Of a stretch of DNA of 64,000 nt, positions 2,418 through 51,827 are shown piece by piece. The notes beneath the pieces are model-generated. The model had not been told where the DNA came from, ran no database searches, and saw nothing but the letters and a program-made list of their open reading frames with translations. The stretch lies in the sequence record NC_008515.1. One strand, written 5' to 3'. The position numbers were made by a program, and so were the translations under genes. The DNA comes from Escherichia phage RB32. How positions within the stretch are numbered: the stretch's first letter is position 1; the number at the start of each line of letters is the position of its first letter.

Positions 2418-2447
2418 ATTATACCACATCCTTGTGGTAAAGTAAAC
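2418..2447 (-). promoter_or_regulatory. sigma70-type early promoter (-35 GTTTAC, 18-bp spacer, -10 TATAAT) reading toward rIIA.1
   Basis: minus strand reads GTTTACtttaccacaaggatgtggTATAAT upstream of the 2392 start codon. Confidence 0.5.
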
Positions 2448-4267
2448 TACTGGCTCATCCATTCTTTACGAAGGTCAGCGTTATCTCCCATGAGCATTTC
2501 AAAAAGCTCTTTCCAGTTCTCAGGAAGTTTAACAACATCATATACTGGATTTTGAATCATCTCACGATATTCAGATTTTTCCAAAGAGCCAAGTCCTTTA
2601 ATATAACGGATGCTATGTTTAGGTAGAGCATCTTTGGCACTCTCATATTCAGCGACTGTATAAAACCATTCTTGTTTTTTGCCGACCTGAGCGATGATTA
2701 CAGGAGTTTTGACAAAACGAATTCGTCCTTGCTCAAACAATTCTGGCCAATTACTAAAAAATCCGAGCAGAGAAGGATAAATGCTTCCTAGACCATCATG
2801 GTCAGCATCAGTCATAATAGCAATATTATGATAATTCAAGTTTTCAGCTTTTTCACCAAGAACTAATCCAGTGATTGCGCAAATATCAAATAGTTCTTTG
2901 TTTTTAAGCATATCAGCATATGACATACCCCAACTGTTGAGAACTTTACCACGTAATGGATAACCACCATGAAGTTCTTTATCACGAACATCAATAAGAT
3001 ATCCGATAGCCGAATCACCCTCAGTCAAGAACAATGTAGTATCAGCATCTTTACCACAAAGATTCGCTTTAATATGTTTATGAACCTTAGCTTTAGAAGC
3101 CTTTTTAGCTGCTTTAGTTTCTGCTGCTTTTTCTGCCGCCAATTTACGAGCCAAAGCAGCTTCAATAATCGGCATTAAAATTGCTTCATTATTTAGAATA
3201 GCACGTGAAATCTTTTTAGCATCAAGTTGAATATGACTACGAATTTCGCCAAATGGAGAAGTCAAACGCTCTTTAGTTTGAGAATCAAATCGCATGTTTT
3301 TCATATCACGAACAAACATAACGATAGTCAAACATTCTTTGACACGTGCTTTAGTTACATCAATTTTGAACTTACGTTTGATTTGTGGAATAAGGTCTTC
3401 ACAAATATCATCCATAACACAGTCAATGTGATGGCCACCATTCTTAGTGTGAATGTTATTCACGTAAGTTAATTGACGAAATCCATCCGGTGAACGACCA
3501 ACCGCAATAGAACAATTTTCTTGCTCTTGAACAATAGCATGTTCATCATACTGCCGTGCATATTTCTTAAAATTACCCTGAACCTTTTTACCATTAAAGG
3601 TAAATTGAATATCAGGATAAACAACAGCAAGTGTCTGGAGACGATCTAATGTAATGTCAAGATAAACTTGGGACAACTCATTAGTTTCAAATGACATAAA
3701 ATCAGGAATGAAAGTAACACGAGTTCCTTTCCATTTTCCAGGAATATCTTCCCATGATTTATTTTCCATGCCATTTGAACAACGAACTACAATATTATTT
3801 TGACCATCACCAGTTTCACCGACAAACATCACAGAAAAAATGTTTGTCAAACTAGAACCAACACCGTTCATACCGCCGGTGACGCGTTCTTTATCATCAC
3901 CGAAGTTACCACCTGCTTTTGGAATAGTCCATGCAGCAACAGGACCAGGAATTTCTTCACCGGTAGGTGTTTTAACCATCGCCTGTGGAATACCGCGACC
4001 GTTATCTTCAACTGTTACTTGATTGTTTTTAATAGTAACATTAATTTTATTTGCGAATTTAAACTTAGTACGAATACCTTCATCTACTGAGTTATCGATA
4101 ATTTCATCAATAAGCTTAACAAGACCAGGTACATACTGAACACTTTCCCATTTACCAAACAGAAAGCGCTCATGCATTTCATTAGCTGAAGAGCCAATGT
4201 ACATGCCGCTACGCTTTTTGATATGTTCAATATCGCTCAGAATTTTAATTTCATTCTTAATCATCAC
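2447..4267 (-). CDS. 39: DNA topoisomerase II large (ATPase) subunit, unsplit gp39+gp60 form
   Basis: 606-aa ORF; N-terminus MMIKNEIKILSDIEHIKKRSGMYIGS (GyrB-like ATPase), C-terminal ~150 aa correspond to T4 gp60; continuous frame, no bypass gap. Confidence 0.9.
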   Translation of the reverse strand: MMIKNEIKILSDIEHIKKRSGMYIGSSANEMHERFLFGKWESVQYVPGLVKLIDEIIDNSVDEGIRTKFKFANKINVTIKNNQVTVEDNGRGIPQAMVKTPTGEEIPGPVAAWTIPKAGGNFGDDKERVTGGMNGVGSSLTNIFSVMFVGETGDGQNNIVVRCSNGMENKSWEDIPGKWKGTRVTFIPDFMSFETNELSQVYLDITLDRLQTLAVVYPDIQFTFNGKKVQGNFKKYARQYDEHAIVQEQENCSIAVGRSPDGFRQLTYVNNIHTKNGGHHIDCVMDDICEDLIPQIKRKFKIDVTKARVKECLTIVMFVRDMKNMRFDSQTKERLTSPFGEIRSHIQLDAKKISRAILNNEAILMPIIEAALARKLAAEKAAETKAAKKASKAKVHKHIKANLCGKDADTTLFLTEGDSAIGYLIDVRDKELHGGYPLRGKVLNSWGMSYADMLKNKELFDICAITGLVLGEKAENLNYHNIAIMTDADHDGLGSIYPSLLGFFSNWPELFEQGRIRFVKTPVIIAQVGKKQEWFYTVAEYESAKDALPKHSIRYIKGLGSLEKSEYREMIQNPVYDVVKLPENWKELFEMLMGDNADLRKEWMSQ

Positions 4268-4333: not shown

Positions 4334-4603
4334 TTATTTAAAACGAATAGTCGAATCCTTGAAGAATAGTCCAGAACATACTGTTCCTTCTACTTTCTGC
4401 CCAGTAGGTCCAATAGCACGAAATCCAGTATGCTGGAAATCATTTTCAGAGCAACCGAACCAATTATATCCAGTGATTTCAATATTAGTAAAACCGCTTG
4501 AAGACAAAACTTTGGTTGCATTATCAGCATCAGTACATCCTATTAAAGACACTGCTAATACTAATGCTGCAATAGAACGATTAACATATTTCATAATTTT
4601 CAC
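4334..4603 (-). CDS. putative lipoprotein (signal peptide with lipobox-like LIGC)
   Basis: 89-aa ORF, N-terminus MKIMKYVNRSIAALVLAVSLIGC. Confidence 0.6.
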   Translation of the reverse strand: MKIMKYVNRSIAALVLAVSLIGCTDADNATKVLSSSGFTNIEITGYNWFGCSENDFQHTGFRAIGPTGQKVEGTVCSGLFFKDSTIRFK

Positions 4604-4971
4604 TTAAATTTAATGGCTTGAAGAAGACTAATAACTCTCAAGCGACTTCTTTCATCTTTAACTGTAAAGGAAAGAGGGTCACCAGATTTCATAGTGATAG
4701 TGCATCCAAAATCAAAATCTTCTGTAACTTCTTCGAATAGGTCAAATTCTTCATCATAAATTAGAACATTACTCTGAAAACTGTGAAGAATTTTTCCATC
4801 ATTTCCAGATGCTGTACTAATCATTGTAACATTATTACCTTTCATATCTTCAACGATAAATTCGCTTGTAGATATTACATTACTAATAGAACCATTCCTA
4901 TAAATAGCAGAAAATAGATATTTCTTTTCTTCACCTTCGCGAATGCGATATTTCTTACCGATTTTAAACAT
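4600..4971 (-). CDS. hypothetical protein
   Basis: ORF track 4600..4977; first ATG is the third codon (MFKIGKKYRI...), 4-nt overlap with downstream gene. Confidence 0.55.
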   Translation of the reverse strand: MFKIGKKYRIREGEEKKYLFSAIYRNGSISNVISTSEFIVEDMKGNNVTMISTASGNDGKILHSFQSNVLIYDEEFDLFEEVTEDFDFGCTITMKSGDPLSFTVKDERSRLRVISLLQAIKFK

Positions 4972-4973
4972 AA

Positions 4974-5150
4974 TCACCCTTTAAGTAAGTCGTAAAATCC
5001 ACCATTCACATGCTTAGGAGCGGAAACTAACCGAATAGCAATCCGATGACAATCAGGACATACATCAGTATCTCTTTCAGAAATTTTCTTGATTTTTTCG
5101 TATTCTTTTGCACAGTCTTTGGATTGACATTTATAATCATAAAGAGGCAT
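4974..5150 (-). CDS. small zinc-ribbon protein (CxxC...CPxC), below the ORF-track size cutoff
   Basis: 58-codon ORF read by hand: MPLYDYKCQSKDCAKEYEKIKKISERDTDVCPDCHRIAIRLVSAPKHVNGGFYDLLKG; fills an otherwise empty 175-bp gap. Confidence 0.4.
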   Translation of the reverse strand: MPLYDYKCQSKDCAKEYEKIKKISERDTDVCPDCHRIAIRLVSAPKHVNGGFYDLLKG

Positions 5151-5152
5151 AA

Positions 5153-5566
5153 TTATTCCTTAAAGTGAGCTTTCAACATCTGATACAAGGACCATGCTTG
5201 TTCATTATTTTCAATAGTAACTTTCATTACCGGGAATTCAGATGGTTCAGTTACTGGTGCAGGGTCTTCCTGCTCTTCAGCAGCCTGATATGGATTTTCC
5301 ACTTCATTAAAGAACTCGGCTTCGTTGCTAGAAAGCCAGATAAAGTTTTCGTCAATGACTGTACCTCGTGATGAATATCCAACTATGCCAGTAGATGTCA
5401 CAATTTTAGTAGGACGCCCGTAATAGTCAACATCTAAAATTTTAAAAGGTTCCATACCTAAACGCCGCGCATAGATTCCGTTATCAGTATGGTCTTTAAT
5501 AAAATTTTCTTGAGCTTGTTTATTTTTGAATTGATACCATTTATTAACTTCAAATTTAATAGCCAT
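5153..5566 (-). CDS. goF: hypothetical protein at the goF (comC-alpha) position
   Basis: ORF track 5153..5584; likely start [13 protein letters not shown] at 5566 in a TAATG overlap with the cef stop; naming by position and size only. Confidence 0.45.
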
Positions 5567-5781
5567 TAATAAATTTCCTTCCAATAAGTTGTGCCATTTT
5601 CAGTAATTTCACGAAATACACCATAAATTGGTTGTTTATCACCGACTTTCTCATACACATAAACAGAAGTCAAGTGAGTAAACTTGCTAGTATGTTCCTT
5701 TTGAACTACTACCAAATTTGGATCAAATAATACATCTTCAAATTCATCATTAGTGCAATTCTGAACAATTTTACGTTTCAT
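5566..5781 (-). CDS. cef: small protein at the cef position (71 aa)
   Basis: 71-aa ORF, same length as T4 Cef and in the expected map position; sequence identity not verified. Confidence 0.5.
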
Positions 5782-5952
5782 TACAATTTCCTCATTAATT
5801 GAACATTGGAGCGATGCGTTTCAGAAGAGTAGCAGCACCTTTGGCGAATTTTCCATTTTATTCTCCAAGTTGTTTTCTGTATCAGTAGTTGATATTGATA
5901 TAGTACCATAATCAACTACTGATGTATATAGTTTTATGAAAAATTTTAAACT
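5782..5952 (-). promoter_or_regulatory. early-promoter-like region with conserved leader and an 11-codon mini-ORF (possible remnant of a lost gene start)
   Basis: minus strand tggTACTATatcaatatcaact...ttggagaataaaATG, as upstream of imm.1 and the 326-aa ATPase gene, but the ATG opens only MENSPKVLLLF before a stop. Confidence 0.35.
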
Positions 5953-6450
5953 TTATGCACAGCGAGCTTTGCTATAGTGTTTAATCCAACTTTCAGGAAT
6001 GACTTTGTATGTTCCTAAAAATACCGCATTGTACAGCTTAACACCATCTTCTACCCATTGATCGGTAATGTATGCACACATAGCGCGAGTACGATGTTTT
6101 TGAACAACCCCTTCCTCATCTTCGGTAAATTCGAATTCATAAGGAGCAATGAACTTAATAGCCTGACCGAGTTTCCACTTAAAGTCTACACCTACGTGCG
6201 AAGTATCAATCGTTTCAATTCCTTTAGCAGGAACAGCTTTCAAAAACGCAGATTCAAGAAATTTCGCACGAACATAGCCAAACTGAGGTTTAGACTTTCC
6301 ATCTTTAGGAATGATACGCACTTTTACTTCAGAATCTTCATCTTTAACACCATGCTTAAGCTGAATGCTTACAATTTCGACCAATTTTCCTGCTGCTTTA
6401 GAACGGGATTTATCAGATACACGAGCAATTTCACCAATATTAATAATCAT
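5953..6450 (-). CDS. motB: MotB-like protein (modifier of transcription B position)
   Basis: 165-aa ORF at the position of T4 motB (162 aa); C-terminal region shared with the next ORF. Confidence 0.55.
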   Translation of the reverse strand: MIINIGEIARVSDKSRSKAAGKLVEIVSIQLKHGVKDEDSEVKVRIIPKDGKSKPQFGYVRAKFLESAFLKAVPAKGIETIDTSHVGVDFKWKLGQAIKFIAPYEFEFTEDEEGVVQKHRTRAMCAYITDQWVEDGVKLYNAVFLGTYKVIPESWIKHYSKARCA

Positions 6451-6494
6451 AGTTATCTCTCACTTGTTAAAAAGATTTTATACTCCACAGGACC

Positions 6495-6524
6495 ATTATA
6501 CTCTGGTCCCAAGAGTTTGTAAAC
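6495..6524 (-). promoter_or_regulatory. early promoter (-35 TTTACA, -10 TATAAT)
   Basis: minus strand TTTACAaactcttgggaccagagTATAAT upstream of 6450 start. Confidence 0.45.
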
Positions 6525-6526
6525 TA

Positions 6527-7066
6527 TTAATTCAAAATAGCTACCACTGCACTACGAGGTACTACGCTAAAATCACCTGCATGAACAACGTTCAGAAGTT
6601 CAACGCCATCTTCAATCCATTGGTCTGTTACCCAGCCACAGACCGAAATAAATGGAGTCTTGATAGCTACCGCACGAGTCAGAAGGTCAGTAGGATCAAC
6701 TTCTTGGAAGAGGATAATCTCTGCTTCAAAGACTATAGTTTTAATTACTTCATCATTATCTAAGCGGTGTACTCGAATCGCATAAGCTTTATTCTTATTA
6801 TACCAGTTACTTTTTGAAAAGCTTTTAACCACAAACTCGCCTTCACCAAAAACATTAGTCAATGCTTTATAACCCAAATTTAGTTCAGTAGTTTTAATTT
6901 CAGTTTCAACCAGTTTGTAGGTTTTGCCGATTTCAATAGCGGTAGTCATAGTAGGTTCCTTAATTTCCAGTGGTTTAACAGGGCATACATAAGTGCTTAC
7001 AACATCAAAATCAATCAGTTTAGCTACCGGATTTGGTATGTATTCAGGATTATAATTAAATTTCAT
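6527..7066 (-). CDS. MotB paralogue
   Basis: 179-aa ORF; C-terminus CGWVTDQWIEDGVELLNVVHAGDFSVVP resembles CAYITDQWVEDGVKLYNAVFLGTYKVIP of ORF 5953..6450. Confidence 0.55.
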   Translation of the reverse strand: MKFNYNPEYIPNPVAKLIDFDVVSTYVCPVKPLEIKEPTMTTAIEIGKTYKLVETEIKTTELNLGYKALTNVFGEGEFVVKSFSKSNWYNKNKAYAIRVHRLDNDEVIKTIVFEAEIILFQEVDPTDLLTRAVAIKTPFISVCGWVTDQWIEDGVELLNVVHAGDFSVVPRSAVVAILN

Positions 7067-7068
7067 AA

Positions 7069-7608
7069 TTATCTCATTTCAATAAAATCTACGAGTTCGG
7101 CATAGGATTTACGGAACATTACTTGATGCCCACCAATGATAACTTGGTCATCTGGTACTTCGTATACAGCAAGATAAAATCCTTTCGAAGATAATTCTTC
7201 CCGCTCTTCTCGCGTGAACCATCTCATCATATCATACTCACTAGCGAAAGCAAAATGATAAAGAGCTATAAACCATCCTGGAATATGATATTCTACTCCA
7301 ACATAATCTTTCTTGAACTTAGTATTAATTACTATATTAGCGTTTTTAACTAATAGTTTATCTTCGTGTGGTAAAGGAATTCTTTTATTATTATCGCTAT
7401 GATGCATAAAATTAGGTCTGTCATAACCTACGTGTAATAGCCACTCTTCACTCCATGAATCTATTATACTCCTGTACGGCGTTATTTGAACACAAAGATT
7501 TCGACGTATTGTTATAGCATCTTCATAATCAAGAATACTAAACGATGATTCAACACGATAAATTTTCATTTTATTATCCTCAGTAGCTATGGTGTTATAA
7601 TACCACAA
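7069..7608 (-). CDS. hypothetical protein
   Basis: 179-aa ORF, 3-nt spacing to downstream gene, early promoter upstream. Confidence 0.55.
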   Translation of the reverse strand: MWYYNTIATEDNKMKIYRVESSFSILDYEDAITIRRNLCVQITPYRSIIDSWSEEWLLHVGYDRPNFMHHSDNNKRIPLPHEDKLLVKNANIVINTKFKKDYVGVEYHIPGWFIALYHFAFASEYDMMRWFTREEREELSSKGFYLAVYEVPDDQVIIGGHQVMFRKSYAELVDFIEMR

Positions 7609-7626
7609 CTAACCGAGGAAGTAAAT
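7597..7626 (-). promoter_or_regulatory. early promoter (-35 ATTTAC, -10 TATTAT)
   Basis: minus strand ATTTACttcctcggttagttgtggTATTAT. Confidence 0.4.
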
Positions 7627-7632
7627 AACTTT

Positions 7633-8316
7633 TTATCGTTTTGTTGGAAGAGACAGAGGATCGCAATCTTCCTCTGACGGAGCATCTTCAAGACCCATAG
7701 CGTATCGCAAAGCATACTTCATCATCAGGATGTCTTTCGCACAGTCATGAATAGAATTATGCGCAACGAATCCATCTAAAGTTCCCTTTGGAAGGGGACA
7801 CGTTGTCATATCACGAACAAGCAGAAGTGCTTCAATTCTGGTACGAATATCACGCTGATTCCAGAATTTACATGGTTCTAACTTAAATGTATCAAGCTCA
7901 TTCTCGGAAACGCCGTTAAGACGTTGAATATCGCGAATGAGATCGACTAAAATTGGAAAATCAAACGACATTCCACGGCACCAGCCTTGAGATTTCCAAG
8001 GATCGATATTATGTGCATTGATGTAATCATTAAATTTTGCAATACCATCAATGGTGCTTACATCTTCATCTGATGGTGCAATATTTTTTCGAGCTTCAGG
8101 AGATTGATTCTTCCACCATTCGATAGTGCTTTTAGTAAAAAGACGATGTCCTTTTTGGCTTTTTAAATCAAACTTGATTTTAATGCCGCGTGAAACTAAT
8201 TCATCAAATGTTTCAACTACTTCTGGATTAGGGTCAAAGGCAATAACAGCCAAATCAATAACAGCTGCCTTTTCACCGCTTCCCATTGTTTCAAAATCTA
8301 TAATAAAATCAAACAT
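7633..8316 (-). CDS. dexA: exonuclease A (DEDD-type 3'-5' exonuclease)
   Basis: 227-aa ORF MFDFIIDFETMGSGEKAAVIDLAVIAF; matches T4 DexA length and DnaQ-like Exo I motif. Confidence 0.85.
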   Translation of the reverse strand: MFDFIIDFETMGSGEKAAVIDLAVIAFDPNPEVVETFDELVSRGIKIKFDLKSQKGHRLFTKSTIEWWKNQSPEARKNIAPSDEDVSTIDGIAKFNDYINAHNIDPWKSQGWCRGMSFDFPILVDLIRDIQRLNGVSENELDTFKLEPCKFWNQRDIRTRIEALLLVRDMTTCPLPKGTLDGFVAHNSIHDCAKDILMMKYALRYAMGLEDAPSEEDCDPLSLPTKR

Positions 8317-8558
8317 TAAATTTTCCTCGCTAAATCGCGAATTTGGCCTACAGTATAGTCTTGAATATAAACTTTATTAATAGGTTCATCAATAAATTTT
8401 GCCATAGATTCAATATCTTTTTGCATCTCTTCAAGACTGTATATTATCTTTAAAGCTTTTTCGCGAATAGTAATATTTTCAGGACCAGAATTTTTCTCAA
8501 TGACAGCTTTAACATTTGTCATAAGAGATTTAAACTGACACCAACTTAATTCAATCAT
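8316..8558 (-). CDS. hypothetical protein (dexA.1 position)
   Basis: ORF track 8316..8591; internal Met at 8558 limits the overlap with the upstream ORF to 8 nt. Confidence 0.5.
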   Translation of the reverse strand: MIELSWCQFKSLMTNVKAVIEKNSGPENITIREKALKIIYSLEEMQKDIESMAKFIDEPINKVYIQDYTVGQIRDLARKI

Positions 8559-8811
8559 TAATAACCGCCTTATAAAGATGGCTAATTTCACCTAAAATGT
8601 AATCACTGATTGTAACAGTTTTTACTTCACCACAAAAGAATTCTAACGCAATCAAATCTCGTTCAATTTCTTCCAATTGAAGCATTAACTTGCCTGATTC
8701 AGTTTTCACATTTTTGCGATTTTTGCTATAAGCTATTTCATAAATTTCGCTTACTTTATCTTGAAGAAGATAAAACTGATCTTTAGTTATTTCCACGAAT
8801 AGCTTCCTCAA
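8551..8811 (-). CDS. hypothetical protein (dexA.2 position)
   Basis: 86-aa ORF between dda and dexA. Confidence 0.5.
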   Translation of the reverse strand: MRKLFVEITKDQFYLLQDKVSEIYEIAYSKNRKNVKTESGKLMLQLEEIERDLIALEFFCGEVKTVTISDYILGEISHLYKAVIND

Positions 8812-8817
8812 ATTTAA

Positions 8818-10137
8818 TCATACATAAAACACATCATAACGACCACGGGTAACACCAACATAAAGAAGCTGCTGTGCTAGTTCAGCATCTGCATAATGAA
8901 TACAAGGTGTATAAATGAAAGCACGATCTACAGACATGCCCTGAGCTTTATGGAATGTTGACGCAGGAAGTGCTTTCACTTTACTGAACTGTGATTTAGC
9001 ATCCCAAAAATCACTCCACGGAGCTTTTCCGCCTTTGTTCCAATTTTTATAAGTTTCTGCCGTTTTACCTAAAAATAAATTAAACTTATATAGCTCTTCA
9101 TCAGATGAAATTATTTTAATCTTTTCACGATAATATTCATCATCGCCGTAAGTTTCTACTGTTAAATCCCAATGACGAATTAAGTATTCTCCAGAAACAC
9201 CACGAGCTTTAACAAAGGTTGATGTATACTCTGCTTCTATAATACGAACTAATTGTCCGTTATTAAAAATAATTTCTGACACAGGCTTTCCATCAATTTT
9301 ATATGTTTTAATTAATGGTTCCTGCATTACAATAATTTCACCGACAATAAAATCTTTATCAGTTTCAAAAATCTTTTTACGAATAATGCTATTTAACTTG
9401 TCAACAGATTTATTCGTAAATGCCATTACGCGATTTTCAAACAAATCATCTAGTGATTTGACGATTGAAAAATAATTTACCATAAAATCGCGTAAAGCGG
9501 TATCACCAGTAAATCCACGTACTCCATGCCCGTCAACAACTTTATCATAAATCCACTTACCATTACGAACATCAGTAGCTACATCAATAATAGGAGCATT
9601 ACTGCGTTTAACTTCAGTAAGTTCACACTGATAAAAATCTTTGTGTGTAAAGAATGGACTGATATAAGCAGTGTTTTCTCCTGGGTCAACAGGTCTGATT
9701 TGCTTATTATCACCTATTCCAATTATGGTACACCATGGCGGGATAGTTGAAAGCAGAATTTTAAATAGCTTTCTATCATACATTGACACTTCGTCGCAGA
9801 TTAATACCCTGCATTTAGCTAAATCTGGTACTTCCTTCTGTTCAAAAAGAACATTTTCTTCATATGTTACCGGGTTAATTTTAAGAATGCTGTGAATAGT
9901 ACTCTCTTCTTTCCCCGACAGTTTTGAAAGAATCTTTTTAGCTGCATGTGTAGGAGCTGCCAAAATGATACCAGTTTCGCCTGTTGATATTAAAGCTTCA
10001 ATGATGAACTTAGTAAGAGTAGTCTTACCAGTACCAGCAGGTCCATTAATAGTTACATGATGTTTCTTTTCTTTAATAGCCCTCATAACGATGTTAAAGG
10101 CATTTTTCTGGCCTTCTGTCAAATCATCAAATGTCAT
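8818..10137 (-). CDS. dda: Dda DNA helicase (SF1)
   Basis: 439-aa ORF, Walker A GPAGTGKTT; length equals T4 Dda. Confidence 0.9.
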   Translation of the reverse strand: MTFDDLTEGQKNAFNIVMRAIKEKKHHVTINGPAGTGKTTLTKFIIEALISTGETGIILAAPTHAAKKILSKLSGKEESTIHSILKINPVTYEENVLFEQKEVPDLAKCRVLICDEVSMYDRKLFKILLSTIPPWCTIIGIGDNKQIRPVDPGENTAYISPFFTHKDFYQCELTEVKRSNAPIIDVATDVRNGKWIYDKVVDGHGVRGFTGDTALRDFMVNYFSIVKSLDDLFENRVMAFTNKSVDKLNSIIRKKIFETDKDFIVGEIIVMQEPLIKTYKIDGKPVSEIIFNNGQLVRIIEAEYTSTFVKARGVSGEYLIRHWDLTVETYGDDEYYREKIKIISSDEELYKFNLFLGKTAETYKNWNKGGKAPWSDFWDAKSQFSKVKALPASTFHKAQGMSVDRAFIYTPCIHYADAELAQQLLYVGVTRGRYDVFYV

Positions 10138-24010: not shown

Positions 24011-24403
24011 TCACTTAGTCAAATTTTTTACACATGAATTATAAGAATTCACTACATACTCCATCGGAGCATTTTTACCTGTACGCCATTGGTAATTATT
24101 AGCCCAATTTGCCCAAAGTTCTGCGCAGTAGTTTTCAATTTTTTCTTCGCGTGTAATTACATCCGAATTACGATATGCTTGAGCAGATTCATCTGGACGA
24201 ATAGCTTCGTCAAAATTCGCCTGCATTTGTTCTACTGTTTGCTTTGAAGCTTCTTTATAACACTTGACATTAGGATTATAAAATTTGCTTGAACAGTTTA
24301 CAATTTTTCCTGCATCAGACTGATTTACTACCGGTCCTTGAGCTACACAACCAGTAAGACCTAATGCAATAACCAAAATAGCGATTTTCATTTCATTCTC
24401 CAA
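24011..24403 (-). CDS. putative lipoprotein (imm.1 position)
   Basis: 130-aa ORF, signal peptide with LTGC lipobox. Confidence 0.6.
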   Translation of the reverse strand: MENEMKIAILVIALGLTGCVAQGPVVNQSDAGKIVNCSSKFYNPNVKCYKEASKQTVEQMQANFDEAIRPDESAQAYRNSDVITREEKIENYCAELWANWANNYQWRTGKNAPMEYVVNSYNSCVKNLTK

Positions 24404-50850: not shown

Positions 50851-51827
50851 TTTAATAATACCGTTTCAGCGATTTCTTCCCAACCGTTTTTGTCGGTCAT
50901 AATAAAGTCAGCAAGATAAAGAGCAGTACGCAGTGAAACATTGCGTAAACGATTAACATTGACTTTCATCCATGATAATGCTTTATAAGTTTCTTCATCA
51001 GAAAGACCGCGCTTTTGCATCATGTCGGTTGAAAGAATAACATCTTCAACCCTGACCATAATTTCTTCATTAGTGTGAACACCCAAATCCAAATAAACCG
51101 AGCGGGACACTAATGCTTGTAAATGTGGAGCAAGTTTAGTACCACGGTCTAATTCGCGGTCAATGTCAACGTTTGTGATAAAAACAATCGTTCCTTTAAA
51201 TTCAAACTCACGCTCAATGCCTTTTTCTTCTAAGTAAGAAGATGCAGTGCTCCAGCAGACTTTACGGGTCTCTCCAGTGTCCAGAGCAGCTTTCAGAAGA
51301 TTAAGAATGTCCATATCAGAGAAAACATCCACATCATCAATCAAAAGGACAGAATTCTCTTCACGATTATTCCAAAGCTGCTCATAAAGACCAATACCAG
51401 AGATTTTACCATTAATGCTTTTATATTCAATGTATCCAATATCATTTGCTTTATTTAAAGCTTTATCTAAAGAATATGTTTTACCTATACCTGCCGCACC
51501 AGAGATAATTAATGAACGAATGTTTCCGTTAATAATACCATTCGTCATCATTCCCATAACATTAAATCTTTTATTAATGCGGGTTTTCATATCTTCATAT
51601 GATTCTTTAACTTCTTCAACTTTTACACCATCATATGAAATGTCTGATTTGTAAACCCAAACACCGCGACGCTTACCGTCAATTTCAACAAAAACTTTAC
51701 CATCTCCTTGTGCATCTACCGGAGCATTATCTGGGAACCATTCACCTAAGAGCTCAAAAGTTCCAGAGATTTCTTTACCAAAGTAGATACCCTTATTGAT
51801 AGTTACAGTTTTCATTTTATTCTCCAA
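50847..51827 (-). CDS. P-loop ATPase (AAA-like)
   Basis: 326-aa ORF; Walker A GAAGIGKT, Walker B LLIDDVD; ATGA overlap with the GIY-YIG gene. Confidence 0.65.
   Translation of the reverse strand: MENKMKTVTINKGIYFGKEISGTFELLGEWFPDNAPVDAQGDGKVFVEIDGKRRGVWVYKSDISYDGVKVEEVKESYEDMKTRINKRFNVMGMMTNGIINGNIRSLIISGAAGIGKTYSLDKALNKANDIGYIEYKSINGKISGIGLYEQLWNNREENSVLLIDDVDVFSDMDILNLLKAALDTGETRKVCWSTASSYLEEKGIEREFEFKGTIVFITNVDIDRELDRGTKLAPHLQALVSRSVYLDLGVHTNEEIMVRVEDVILSTDMMQKRGLSDEETYKALSWMKVNVNRLRNVSLRTALYLADFIMTDKNGWEEIAETVLLK

Follow-up and report, generated by a model that had tools for sequence, protein, structure and literature searches.

The 11-codon reading frame between motB and cef is probably the deletion scar of an 89-codon gene behind a T4-type early-promoter cassette

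The gap between motB and cef in the 64,000 nucleotides of Escherichia phage RB32 DNA analysed here (NC_008515.1; the window) holds a promoter-like leader followed by a reading frame of only 11 codons. We conclude, with a probability of about 85%, that this stub is the deletion scar of an 89-codon gene and that it stands behind a T4-type early-promoter cassette of the promoter-early stem-loop (PeSL) kind. Gene names are those of Enterobacteria phage RB33 (KM607001.1), to which the window is 100% identical with the same coordinates. Every gene here, motB, cef and goF, is on the minus strand, as is the intervening gap. Read on that strand, the gap leads from the motB stop through an A/T-rich block, TATACA, a spacer ending in TGG, TACTAT, ATCAACTACTGATACAG, GGAG and an ATG with 10 further codons to a TGA, and then to cef. 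An earlier note had described a 171-bp gap with a leader, an ATG and the peptide MENSPKVLLLF before a stop, and all of this was confirmed on the minus-strand sequence. The distance of 80 nt to cef that it gave has to be corrected: counted to the cef ATG, it is 75 nt from the ATG of the stub and 39 nt from its stop. In T4 the gap measures 170 bp (NC_000866 6483-6652) and is unannotated. The features, in minus-strand order, are as follows.

5953-6450, minus strand: motB, the upstream gene, stop TAA at 5955-5953 (Pfam PF17613, 2.8e-99)
5782-5952, minus strand: motB-cef gap, 171 bp
5929-5952, minus strand: A/T-rich UP-like stretch AAGTTTAAAATTTTTCATAAAACT, straight after the motB stop, aligning with the AAAAATTTTTCACAAAAC block of other early promoters (nhmmer match)
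5923-5928, minus strand: -35-like hexamer TATACA, the -35/-10 assignment following the annotated T4 motA promoter (Z48569)
5906-5922, minus strand: promoter spacer TCAGTAGTTGATTATGG, 17 nt, its last 3 nt being the TGn of an extended -10 (5908-5906)
5900-5905, minus strand: -10 hexamer TACTAT, identical to the -10 of the annotated T4 motA early promoter
5893, minus strand: predicted transcription start, A, 7 nt after the -10, placed by geometry and by analogy with the annotated motA promoter
5881-5923, minus strand: perfect 13-bp inverted repeat, left arm ATCAGTAGTTGAT (5923-5911), right arm ATCAACTACTGAT (5893-5881)
5856-5866, minus strand: Shine-Dalgarno GGAG (5866-5863) and A-rich spacer, GGAGAATAAAA, an 11/11 match to the RegB consensus
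5821-5856, minus strand: stub reading frame MENSPKVLLLF, ATG at 5856-5854, 10 more codons, TGA at 5823-5821
5849-5852, minus strand: deletion junction AAAA, common to the repeats ATGGAAAA and ATGTAAAA, with 208 bp missing relative to intact alleles
5795-5848, minus strand: 3' remnant of the PHROG 3720 gene, former codons F-A-K-G-A-A-T-L-L-K-R-I-A-P-M-F-N-stop, untranslated in that frame
5790-5793, minus strand: Shine-Dalgarno GAGG of cef itself, 8 nt ahead of the cef ATG
5566-5781, minus strand: cef, now directly downstream of the promoter (Pfam PF24050, 6e-35)
5153-5566, minus strand: goF, after cef

An 89-codon gene is annotated between motB and cef in the Shigella phage SH7, and the gene is also intact at this place in T2, Sf25, GiZh, RB18 and wV7. 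Its product matches PHROG 3720 (E 2.6e-46). In an alignment of RB33, SH7 and T4, the three sequences are identical up to ATGGAAAA, the next 208 bp are found in SH7 only, and the last ~54 nt of the SH7 gene are present in all three. The same internal 208 bp are missing from RB33, T4, T6 and RB14. As 208 is not a multiple of 3, the frame was shifted and a stop now follows after 11 codons. The deletion put the last 18 codons directly behind codon 2, in a wrong frame; codons 1 and 2 of the stub are those of the ancestral gene, and the remainder is a +1, out-of-frame reading of the gene's 3' end. The old C-terminal codons (KFAKGAATLLKRIA…) survive out of frame before cef. SH7 encodes MENLIII...VKFAKGAATLLKRIAPLFN, and the RB33 remnant spells FAKGAATLLKRIAPMFN-stop in a frame that has no start codon. 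One of two readings in the earlier note was the scar of a deleted gene whose promoter and start codon had been left behind, to be checked by looking for a full-length gene in related phages. The 89-codon gene at the exact position in relatives, together with the absence of the same 208 bp from RB33, T4 and T6, bears that reading out.

The missing segment is flanked by a direct repeat, ATG(G/T)AAAA, with 7 of 8 positions matching, and one copy is left in the short form. In all of the seven intact alleles compared, ATGGAAAA, at the gene start, and ATGTAAAA are spaced exactly 208 bp apart. Since the repeat spacing equals the deletion length and one copy is left, the end points coincide with the 7-of-8 direct repeat. 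A single repeat copy at the junction is the signature of slippage or illegitimate recombination, which was presumably the cause of the deletion. The opposite polarity would have the short form as ancestral and the 89-codon gene as the product of a 208-bp insertion in the T2/RB3 lineage, and it would be in keeping with the roughly equal frequency of the two forms and with the indels that are common in this region. It is, however, extremely improbable, because homologues in Klebsiella Jiaodavirus align over both sides of the junction (41% identity, residues 3-89), because the conserved C-terminal motif is still encoded in RB33, in a frame of the remnant that lacks a start codon, and because the 208 bp are flanked by a direct repeat of which the short form has one copy. 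Homologues were found in ~140 Klebsiella T4-like phages. They align at ~41% identity over residues 3-89, a span that takes in the part left in RB33, and the C-terminal motif KFAK..L(L/V)KRI is conserved in them. As these homologues cover the whole protein, on both sides of the junction, the long form is ancestral and the short form is derived.

We surveyed GenBank phage records for both alleles. The whole gap was present in 491 records and the deleted segment in 261; an evenly spread sample of 55 records contained 29 intact and 26 deleted alleles (~47% deleted). Intact alleles are found in T2, RB3, RB5, RB6, RB10, RB18, RB68, PP01, wV7 and SH7, and deleted alleles in T4, T6, RB14, RB33 and many recent isolates. 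Scans of IMG/VR with the hairpin and loop sequences added 7 loci only, one of them unrelated. According to the earlier note, finding the same short gap and no gene in related genomes would count against a scar; about half of ~490 genomes carry the intact gene. The 208-bp loss has thus reached about half of the sequenced relatives, either as one deletion spread by recombination or through recurrent deletion at the same repeats.

A different lesion was found in three metagenome contigs (L028:183-441, L029:1-292 and L030:2-308), which lack 11 bp, ATTGCTGAATG, after codon 33 and thereby gain an in-frame TAA; in place of the one gene, gene callers report two ORFs, of 33 and 58 aa. This second lesion is independent of the first, and the 89-codon gene has therefore been lost repeatedly, by at least two independent inactivations, which further supports its dispensability. 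The lost 89-aa protein had no match in Pfam, in PADLOC or among PDB sequences, and a Klebsiella homologue gave a marginal cyclase match only in PADLOC (E 0.007). A single-sequence AlphaFold model of the lost protein, of moderate confidence (pLDDT 72.5), has the order beta-beta-beta-alpha-beta-beta-alpha. Compared with PDB folds, the model gave no significant match (best E 0.13), and its only BFVD matches were members of its own family and uncharacterised proteins. The PHROG 3720 gene, kept by T2 and about half of the relatives, is one that T4 lacks, and its loss is a clean natural case of deletion between 8-nt repeats in a hyperplastic region.

Several other differences were noted in the neighbourhood. 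RB33_005, a 125-codon ORF at 4600-4977 (minus strand) between 39.2 and 39.1, is absent from that place in T4 and SH7, and we class it as another ORFan presence/absence polymorphism of the same hyperplastic region. The annotated 39.1 of T4 apparently starts later than the RB33 and SH7 homologues. The large subunit of topoisomerase II is encoded in the window by a single uninterrupted ORF of 606 codons (2447-4267, minus strand); its T4 counterpart is split into 39 and 60, with 60.1 and mobA between them. On the other side of the gap, RB33_010 (6527-7066, minus strand) has a C-terminus (…VTDQWIEDGVELLNVV…) that resembles that of MotB (…ITDQWVEDGVKLYNAV…), and it appears to be a paralogue of MotB; TTTACA-17-TATAAT, a sigma-70-like promoter, lies between RB33_010 and motB, at 6523-6495.

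The second reading in the earlier note was a short upstream ORF regulating cef and goF. A stub maintained for this role, as a regulatory uORF or leader peptide controlling cef and goF by coupling, attenuation or protection from Rho, would agree with the consensus Shine-Dalgarno sequence and 6-nt spacing of its ATG, with the occurrence of a short ORF in all 14 deleted alleles compared, and with the genetic link of goF to Rho-dependent effects (PMC2988021). These 14 alleles, however, do not conserve what such a role would be expected to need. They share one and the same junction, and the changes that followed it are a 1-nt deletion, insertions of 2 and of 3 nt, and numerous substitutions. ORF length, peptide, frame and the distance from stop to cef all vary among them. 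The stub has 11 codons in eight alleles, 12 in one, 8 in two and 4 in three, and encodes 8 different peptides; its stop lies 39, 50 or 59 nt from the cef ATG. The Shine-Dalgarno sequence GGAG is kept in 12 alleles and is destroyed, reading GAAG, in the other two, T6 and G3F8. Between 5893 and 5760 the leader RNA is no more stably folded than shuffled sequences are (z +0.41) and leaves the cef Shine-Dalgarno sequence not stably paired, and it has no Rfam match. Moreover, cef has a Shine-Dalgarno sequence of its own, about half of the relatives have a full gene in place of the stub, and the remnant changes at the same pace as the neighbouring cef coding sequence, much faster than the promoter does. 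Because the stub is decaying, with 4, 8, 11 or 12 codons and GGAG lost in 2 of 14 alleles, a conserved regulatory uORF is very unlikely, and we do not uphold the earlier proposal. As an ATG and a short ORF are present in all 14 alleles and GGAG in 12, translating something at the stub may still bring a mild benefit.

Other reading frames across the scar were considered and rejected as genes. A 44-codon ORF on the minus strand (5781-5915) and a 29-codon ORF on the plus strand (5799-5888) both lack a Shine-Dalgarno sequence, and the frame of each is broken by indels in the relatives. In Lutter (L012:196-309, plus strand) and G3F8 (L016:193-300, minus strand), CDSs for a 'hypothetical protein' have been called over the scar. 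The two are on different strands, their frames are not conserved, and both are almost surely artefacts of annotation. CDSs called over the scar in some GenBank and RefSeq records are thus almost certainly spurious, and a short ORF that follows a strong phage ribosome-binding site can be a remnant and not a regulatory uORF.

The part of the gap upstream of the scar is a member of a dispersed family. The 15-mer TTGGAGAATAAAATG at 5868-5854, which the earlier note had called a conserved -10/leader sequence, comprises the Shine-Dalgarno sequence, the spacer and the start codon. Its description as a leader stands, in that ~90-nt copies of the module precede real genes; the -10 label does not, the -10 being at 5905-5900. 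With up to 3 mismatches the 15-mer occurs 14 times in the window against 8.1 +/- 3.0 expected, a count that is weak evidence on its own. An exact copy at 51813-51827 and a copy with 1 mismatch at 24389-24403 both precede real ORFs, and both sit within ~90-nt copies of the promoter module of the gap (blastn; nhmmer E 1e-11 to 1e-14). The conserved leader is real, far beyond chance. Over its first ~105 nt the gap is homologous to these two copies, to the T4 motA early promoter, for which a -35 GTTTACA and a -10 TACTAT are annotated in Z48569, and to the region upstream of e.8 in RB3 and RB69; paralogues of the cassette are thus dispersed at 51.9 kb and 24.5 kb in the window, upstream of e.8 and upstream of motA. 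An HMM built from the other copies found 13 early promoters in the window and ranked that of the gap fourth (E 3.5e-11).

As judged by the features of T4 early promoters, the gap has the UP-like stretch, the TGn, a -10 of the form TAnnAT and the 17-nt spacing, and at -35 it has ATATAC and not GTTTAC. The latter is found in 11 of the other 12 T4-type early promoters of the window, and the twelfth, near 7632, has ATTTAC. A generic scan for sigma-70 promoters and terminators called nothing in the gap, the promoter scoring 8/12, under the cutoff. Homology to the T4 early promoters was the only route by which it was recognised. The atypical -35 and the silent sigma-70 scan suggest that the promoter may be weak. 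A MotA-dependent middle promoter was considered and rejected: none is listed at T4 positions 5349 to 10058, and the sequence shows no MotA box.

The closest paralogue of the gap cassette is that upstream of e.8 (RB3, L006:301-420). The two are identical from the right arm of the inverted repeat, ATCAACTACTGAT, to ATGGA, and differ in the bases between the -10 and the arm. Stubs of the T6 type (T6, RB14, HP3.1 and G3F8 were compared) start ATGGATAATT, exactly as e.8 does, and the Klebsiella homologue of the lost gene lies just after a tRNA cluster, which is the neighbourhood of e.8 in T4. These observations are compatible with cassette exchange or gene conversion between the gap and e.8 loci. 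The e.8 gene itself was rejected as a paralogue of the lost gene, since the two loci share the promoter, the leader and the first ~10 nt only, and not the protein.

To compare constraint along the gap, we ran two queries of equal length (54 nt) against the phage collection. The promoter core and hairpin (5878-5931) were identical in 470 of 499 records (94%), and the 3' remnant (5795-5848) in 15 of 492 (3%), with 206 records at 90-95% identity. Across 16 aligned sequences, nucleotide diversity was 0-0.03 in the promoter and hairpin (0-0.01 in the core formed by the -35/left arm and the loop/-10), 0.066 in the remnant and ~0.06 in the cef coding sequence. The promoter core is equally conserved in intact and deleted genomes. 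Because the block is equally conserved in both classes and cef and goF lie immediately downstream, the promoter is best seen as in use, and most likely it still drives cef-goF. The word 'orphan', used for it in the earlier note, does not suit an element whose core is the same in 94% of ~500 genomes, those with the intact and those with the deleted gene alike, and which has cef-goF directly downstream.

Could the promoter instead be a dead relic, an orphan after all? Transcription of cef-goF would then come by read-through from the motB promoter only, and the sequence would be conserved as an RNA processing or stability hairpin or through homogenisation among paralogues. The atypical ATATAC (11 of the 12 others have GTTTAC and the twelfth ATTTAC) and the silence of the sigma-70 scan are in line with this. 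So is the lack of a step up in T4 read density from motB to cef: reads per nt were 32.6 for motB, 32.8 for cef and 41.2 for goF in RNA-seq counts (PMC6024815 supplement), which are gene-level and cannot resolve a promoter in the gap. Gene conversion is also conceivable, given that the paralogue most like it, upstream of e.8, has the same bases from the right hairpin arm to ATGGA. A relic nevertheless appears unlikely. The UP-like stretch, TGn and TACTAT are intact and invariant in 21 of 21 sequences; one additional metagenome contig, L028, has TAG for the TGG of the extended -10. An extended -10 promoter tolerates a weak -35 (PMC2988021), and in phages with the intact gene this is the sole promoter-like element directly before the 89 codons. 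Finally, the bases specific to this copy (ATATAC and the spacer) are conserved, and conversion from other copies would erase them.

With the promoter taken to be live, expression of the region might proceed as follows; we infer promoter activity, translation of the stub and RegB cleavage from the sequence features described. Host sigma-70 RNA polymerase would start at ~5893 and produce an early mRNA of the stub and cef-goF with a 112-nt leader. The stub would probably be translated, if incidentally, and RegB could cut GG^AG in its Shine-Dalgarno sequence, by which the message would be inactivated or processed. In intact alleles the stop of the upstream gene lies 13 nt before the cef ATG, a spacing that would permit translational coupling. 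Since the deletion the stop is 39 nt away, and cef would then depend on its own Shine-Dalgarno sequence. In T4, reads for motB, cef and goF are ~2-fold up in a motA amber infection (counts from the PMC6024815 supplement), which is early-gene behaviour. In the same data motB.2 and dexA fall ~2-fold (T4 NC_000866 5842-7141), and this suggests that the transcription class changes between motB.2 and motB.1/motB. The searchable literature, with the main T4 promoter compilation outside its reach, yielded no paper on the motB-cef scar or on promoter activity there, nor one mapping transcription starts, ribosomes or RegB cleavage at this site.

The 13-bp inverted repeat encloses the -10. The spacer of the gap promoter exactly complements the conserved initial transcribed sequence, and it is for this reason that a perfect inverted repeat surrounds the -10. 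The loop of 17 nt holds the TGn and the -10 and makes an inner stem of 5 bp. As RNA, the hairpin has about -20 kcal/mol (z -6.3; z -2.9 for a fold of the whole gap). The predicted start, the A at 5893 (T4 NC_000866 ~6594, complement), is the first base of the right arm, and the hairpin is therefore possible only in RNA reading through from motB. In such RNA it would form and act as an attenuator or a 3'-end stabiliser, as proposed for PeSL stem-loops. Read density in T4 does not fall from motB to cef, but gene-level counts are uninformative on this point. Among 21 hairpin sequences, 18 are identical; ERS-1 has a compensatory change from A-U to G-C, TB004 a U.G wobble in the sense RNA, and RB18 a mismatch at the second base pair from the open end of the stem. 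This gives modest support for structural constraint, and palindrome-templated correction could also be the source of the double change in ERS-1. The hairpin does not have the makings of an intrinsic terminator, as no U-tract follows it (the next bases are ACAGAAAACAAC) and the terminator scan of the gap was empty. A search of 5400-6300 against Rfam at a permissive threshold gave no match.

Inverted repeats of other designs were seen at other T4-type early promoters of the window. At three on the minus strand (-35 G at ~49743, 59855 and 62568) the spacer pairs with the 5' UTR, including the Shine-Dalgarno sequence of the next gene; promoter 49743 has the arms TGTTCCTCTGTGGT and ACTACGGAGGAACA (-27 kcal/mol, z -4.1), promoter 59855 has a z of -4.4, and at the promoter at ~12597 the hairpin comes after the -10. 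Where the Shine-Dalgarno sequence is part of the repeat, it would be masked in read-through RNA and free in locally started RNA, which is the logic of the classical T4 cases e, soc and 49 transferred to early promoters. For the gap, one may imagine, beyond a PeSL attenuator, a purpose-built switch by which read-through and locally started RNA are treated differently, the hairpin and a RegB cut giving a stable motB 3' end and a separately decaying cef-goF mRNA, or else a DNA operator for a phage protein. The near-invariance of the hairpin would suit either; we think a purpose-built element quite unlikely. If there were such a switch, the stub Shine-Dalgarno sequence and ATG would have been kept since RegB processing needs ribosome or S1 loading there.

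In several T4 genes, e, soc, 49 and that of I-TevI, the promoter lies inside a hairpin, and RNA started locally lacks the 5' arm that read-through RNA carries. The gap promoter is likewise inside a hairpin, but this one excludes the Shine-Dalgarno sequence, so translation initiation would not be masked. Compared with the T4 motA early promoter, the gap shares the UP block AAAATTTTTCA-AAAAC, the TGG-TACTAT and the initial transcribed sequence ATCAACTACTGATACAG; it differs in having ATATAC for the conserved GTTTAC at -35 and in its spacer, in whose place stands a complement to the initial transcribed sequence that gives the hairpin.

The strong RegB/S1 cleavage consensus is GG*AGRAYARAA (PMC3014915). 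On its sequence, GGAGAATAAAA is a candidate strong RegB site: as in the RegB/S1 sites of T4 early mRNAs, it fits all 11 positions and lies in the translation initiation region of an early gene, and it is weakly paired in minimum-free-energy folds and unpaired in the centroid fold. Unlike at those sites, the ORF behind it is a remnant, so that the predicted cleavage would mainly touch the cef-goF message.

PeSLs are promoter-early stem-loop cassettes of T4-like phages (Arbiol et al. 2010, PMC2839356; Comeau et al. 2014, PMC4122927). Their layout is an upstream stop in an A/T-rich stretch, a -35/N17/-10, a stem-loop at or over the -10, a Shine-Dalgarno sequence and an ATG (PMC2839356), with TTTACW...N17...TAYWAT as the consensus of the T4/PST type (PMC4122927). 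The gap is intergenic, begins at the motB stop in an A/T-rich stretch and has its -35 and -10 17 nt apart; TACTAT fits TAYWAT, and TATACA fits TTTACW in 5 of 6 positions. Its stem-loop is over the -10, among the two commonest published positions, and the cassette ends in a Shine-Dalgarno sequence and ATG. It is also repeated in the genome and lies in a hyperplastic region beside an ORFan that is present or absent in close relatives. Judged by these features, the cassette fits the PeSL layout with one -35 mismatch. It differs from PeSLs in that the stem is A/U-rich and has no G-run/C-run pattern, and in that promoter and terminator activity have been shown for the RB49 and phi1 elements only, whereas the gap element is known from sequence. 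Moreover, the gene was not lost through PeSL-PeSL recombination, as both end points of the deletion are inside the ORF, at the 8-nt repeat.

Spontaneous deletions between short direct repeats are familiar in T4 from the classical rII work. The scar resembles them in having its end points at a 7-of-8 direct repeat, a spacing equal to the deletion length and one copy kept; in contrast to the rII deletions it is no laboratory mutant, and it is a natural polymorphism in about half of the sequenced isolates. The motB-cef intergenic region of T4, RB33, T6 and RB14 is thereby accounted for as a pseudogene scar and a promoter cassette that is probably live. No new mechanism is involved; scar and cassette together are a new, well-documented instance of two known processes, direct-repeat deletion and the T4 early-promoter/PeSL arrangement.
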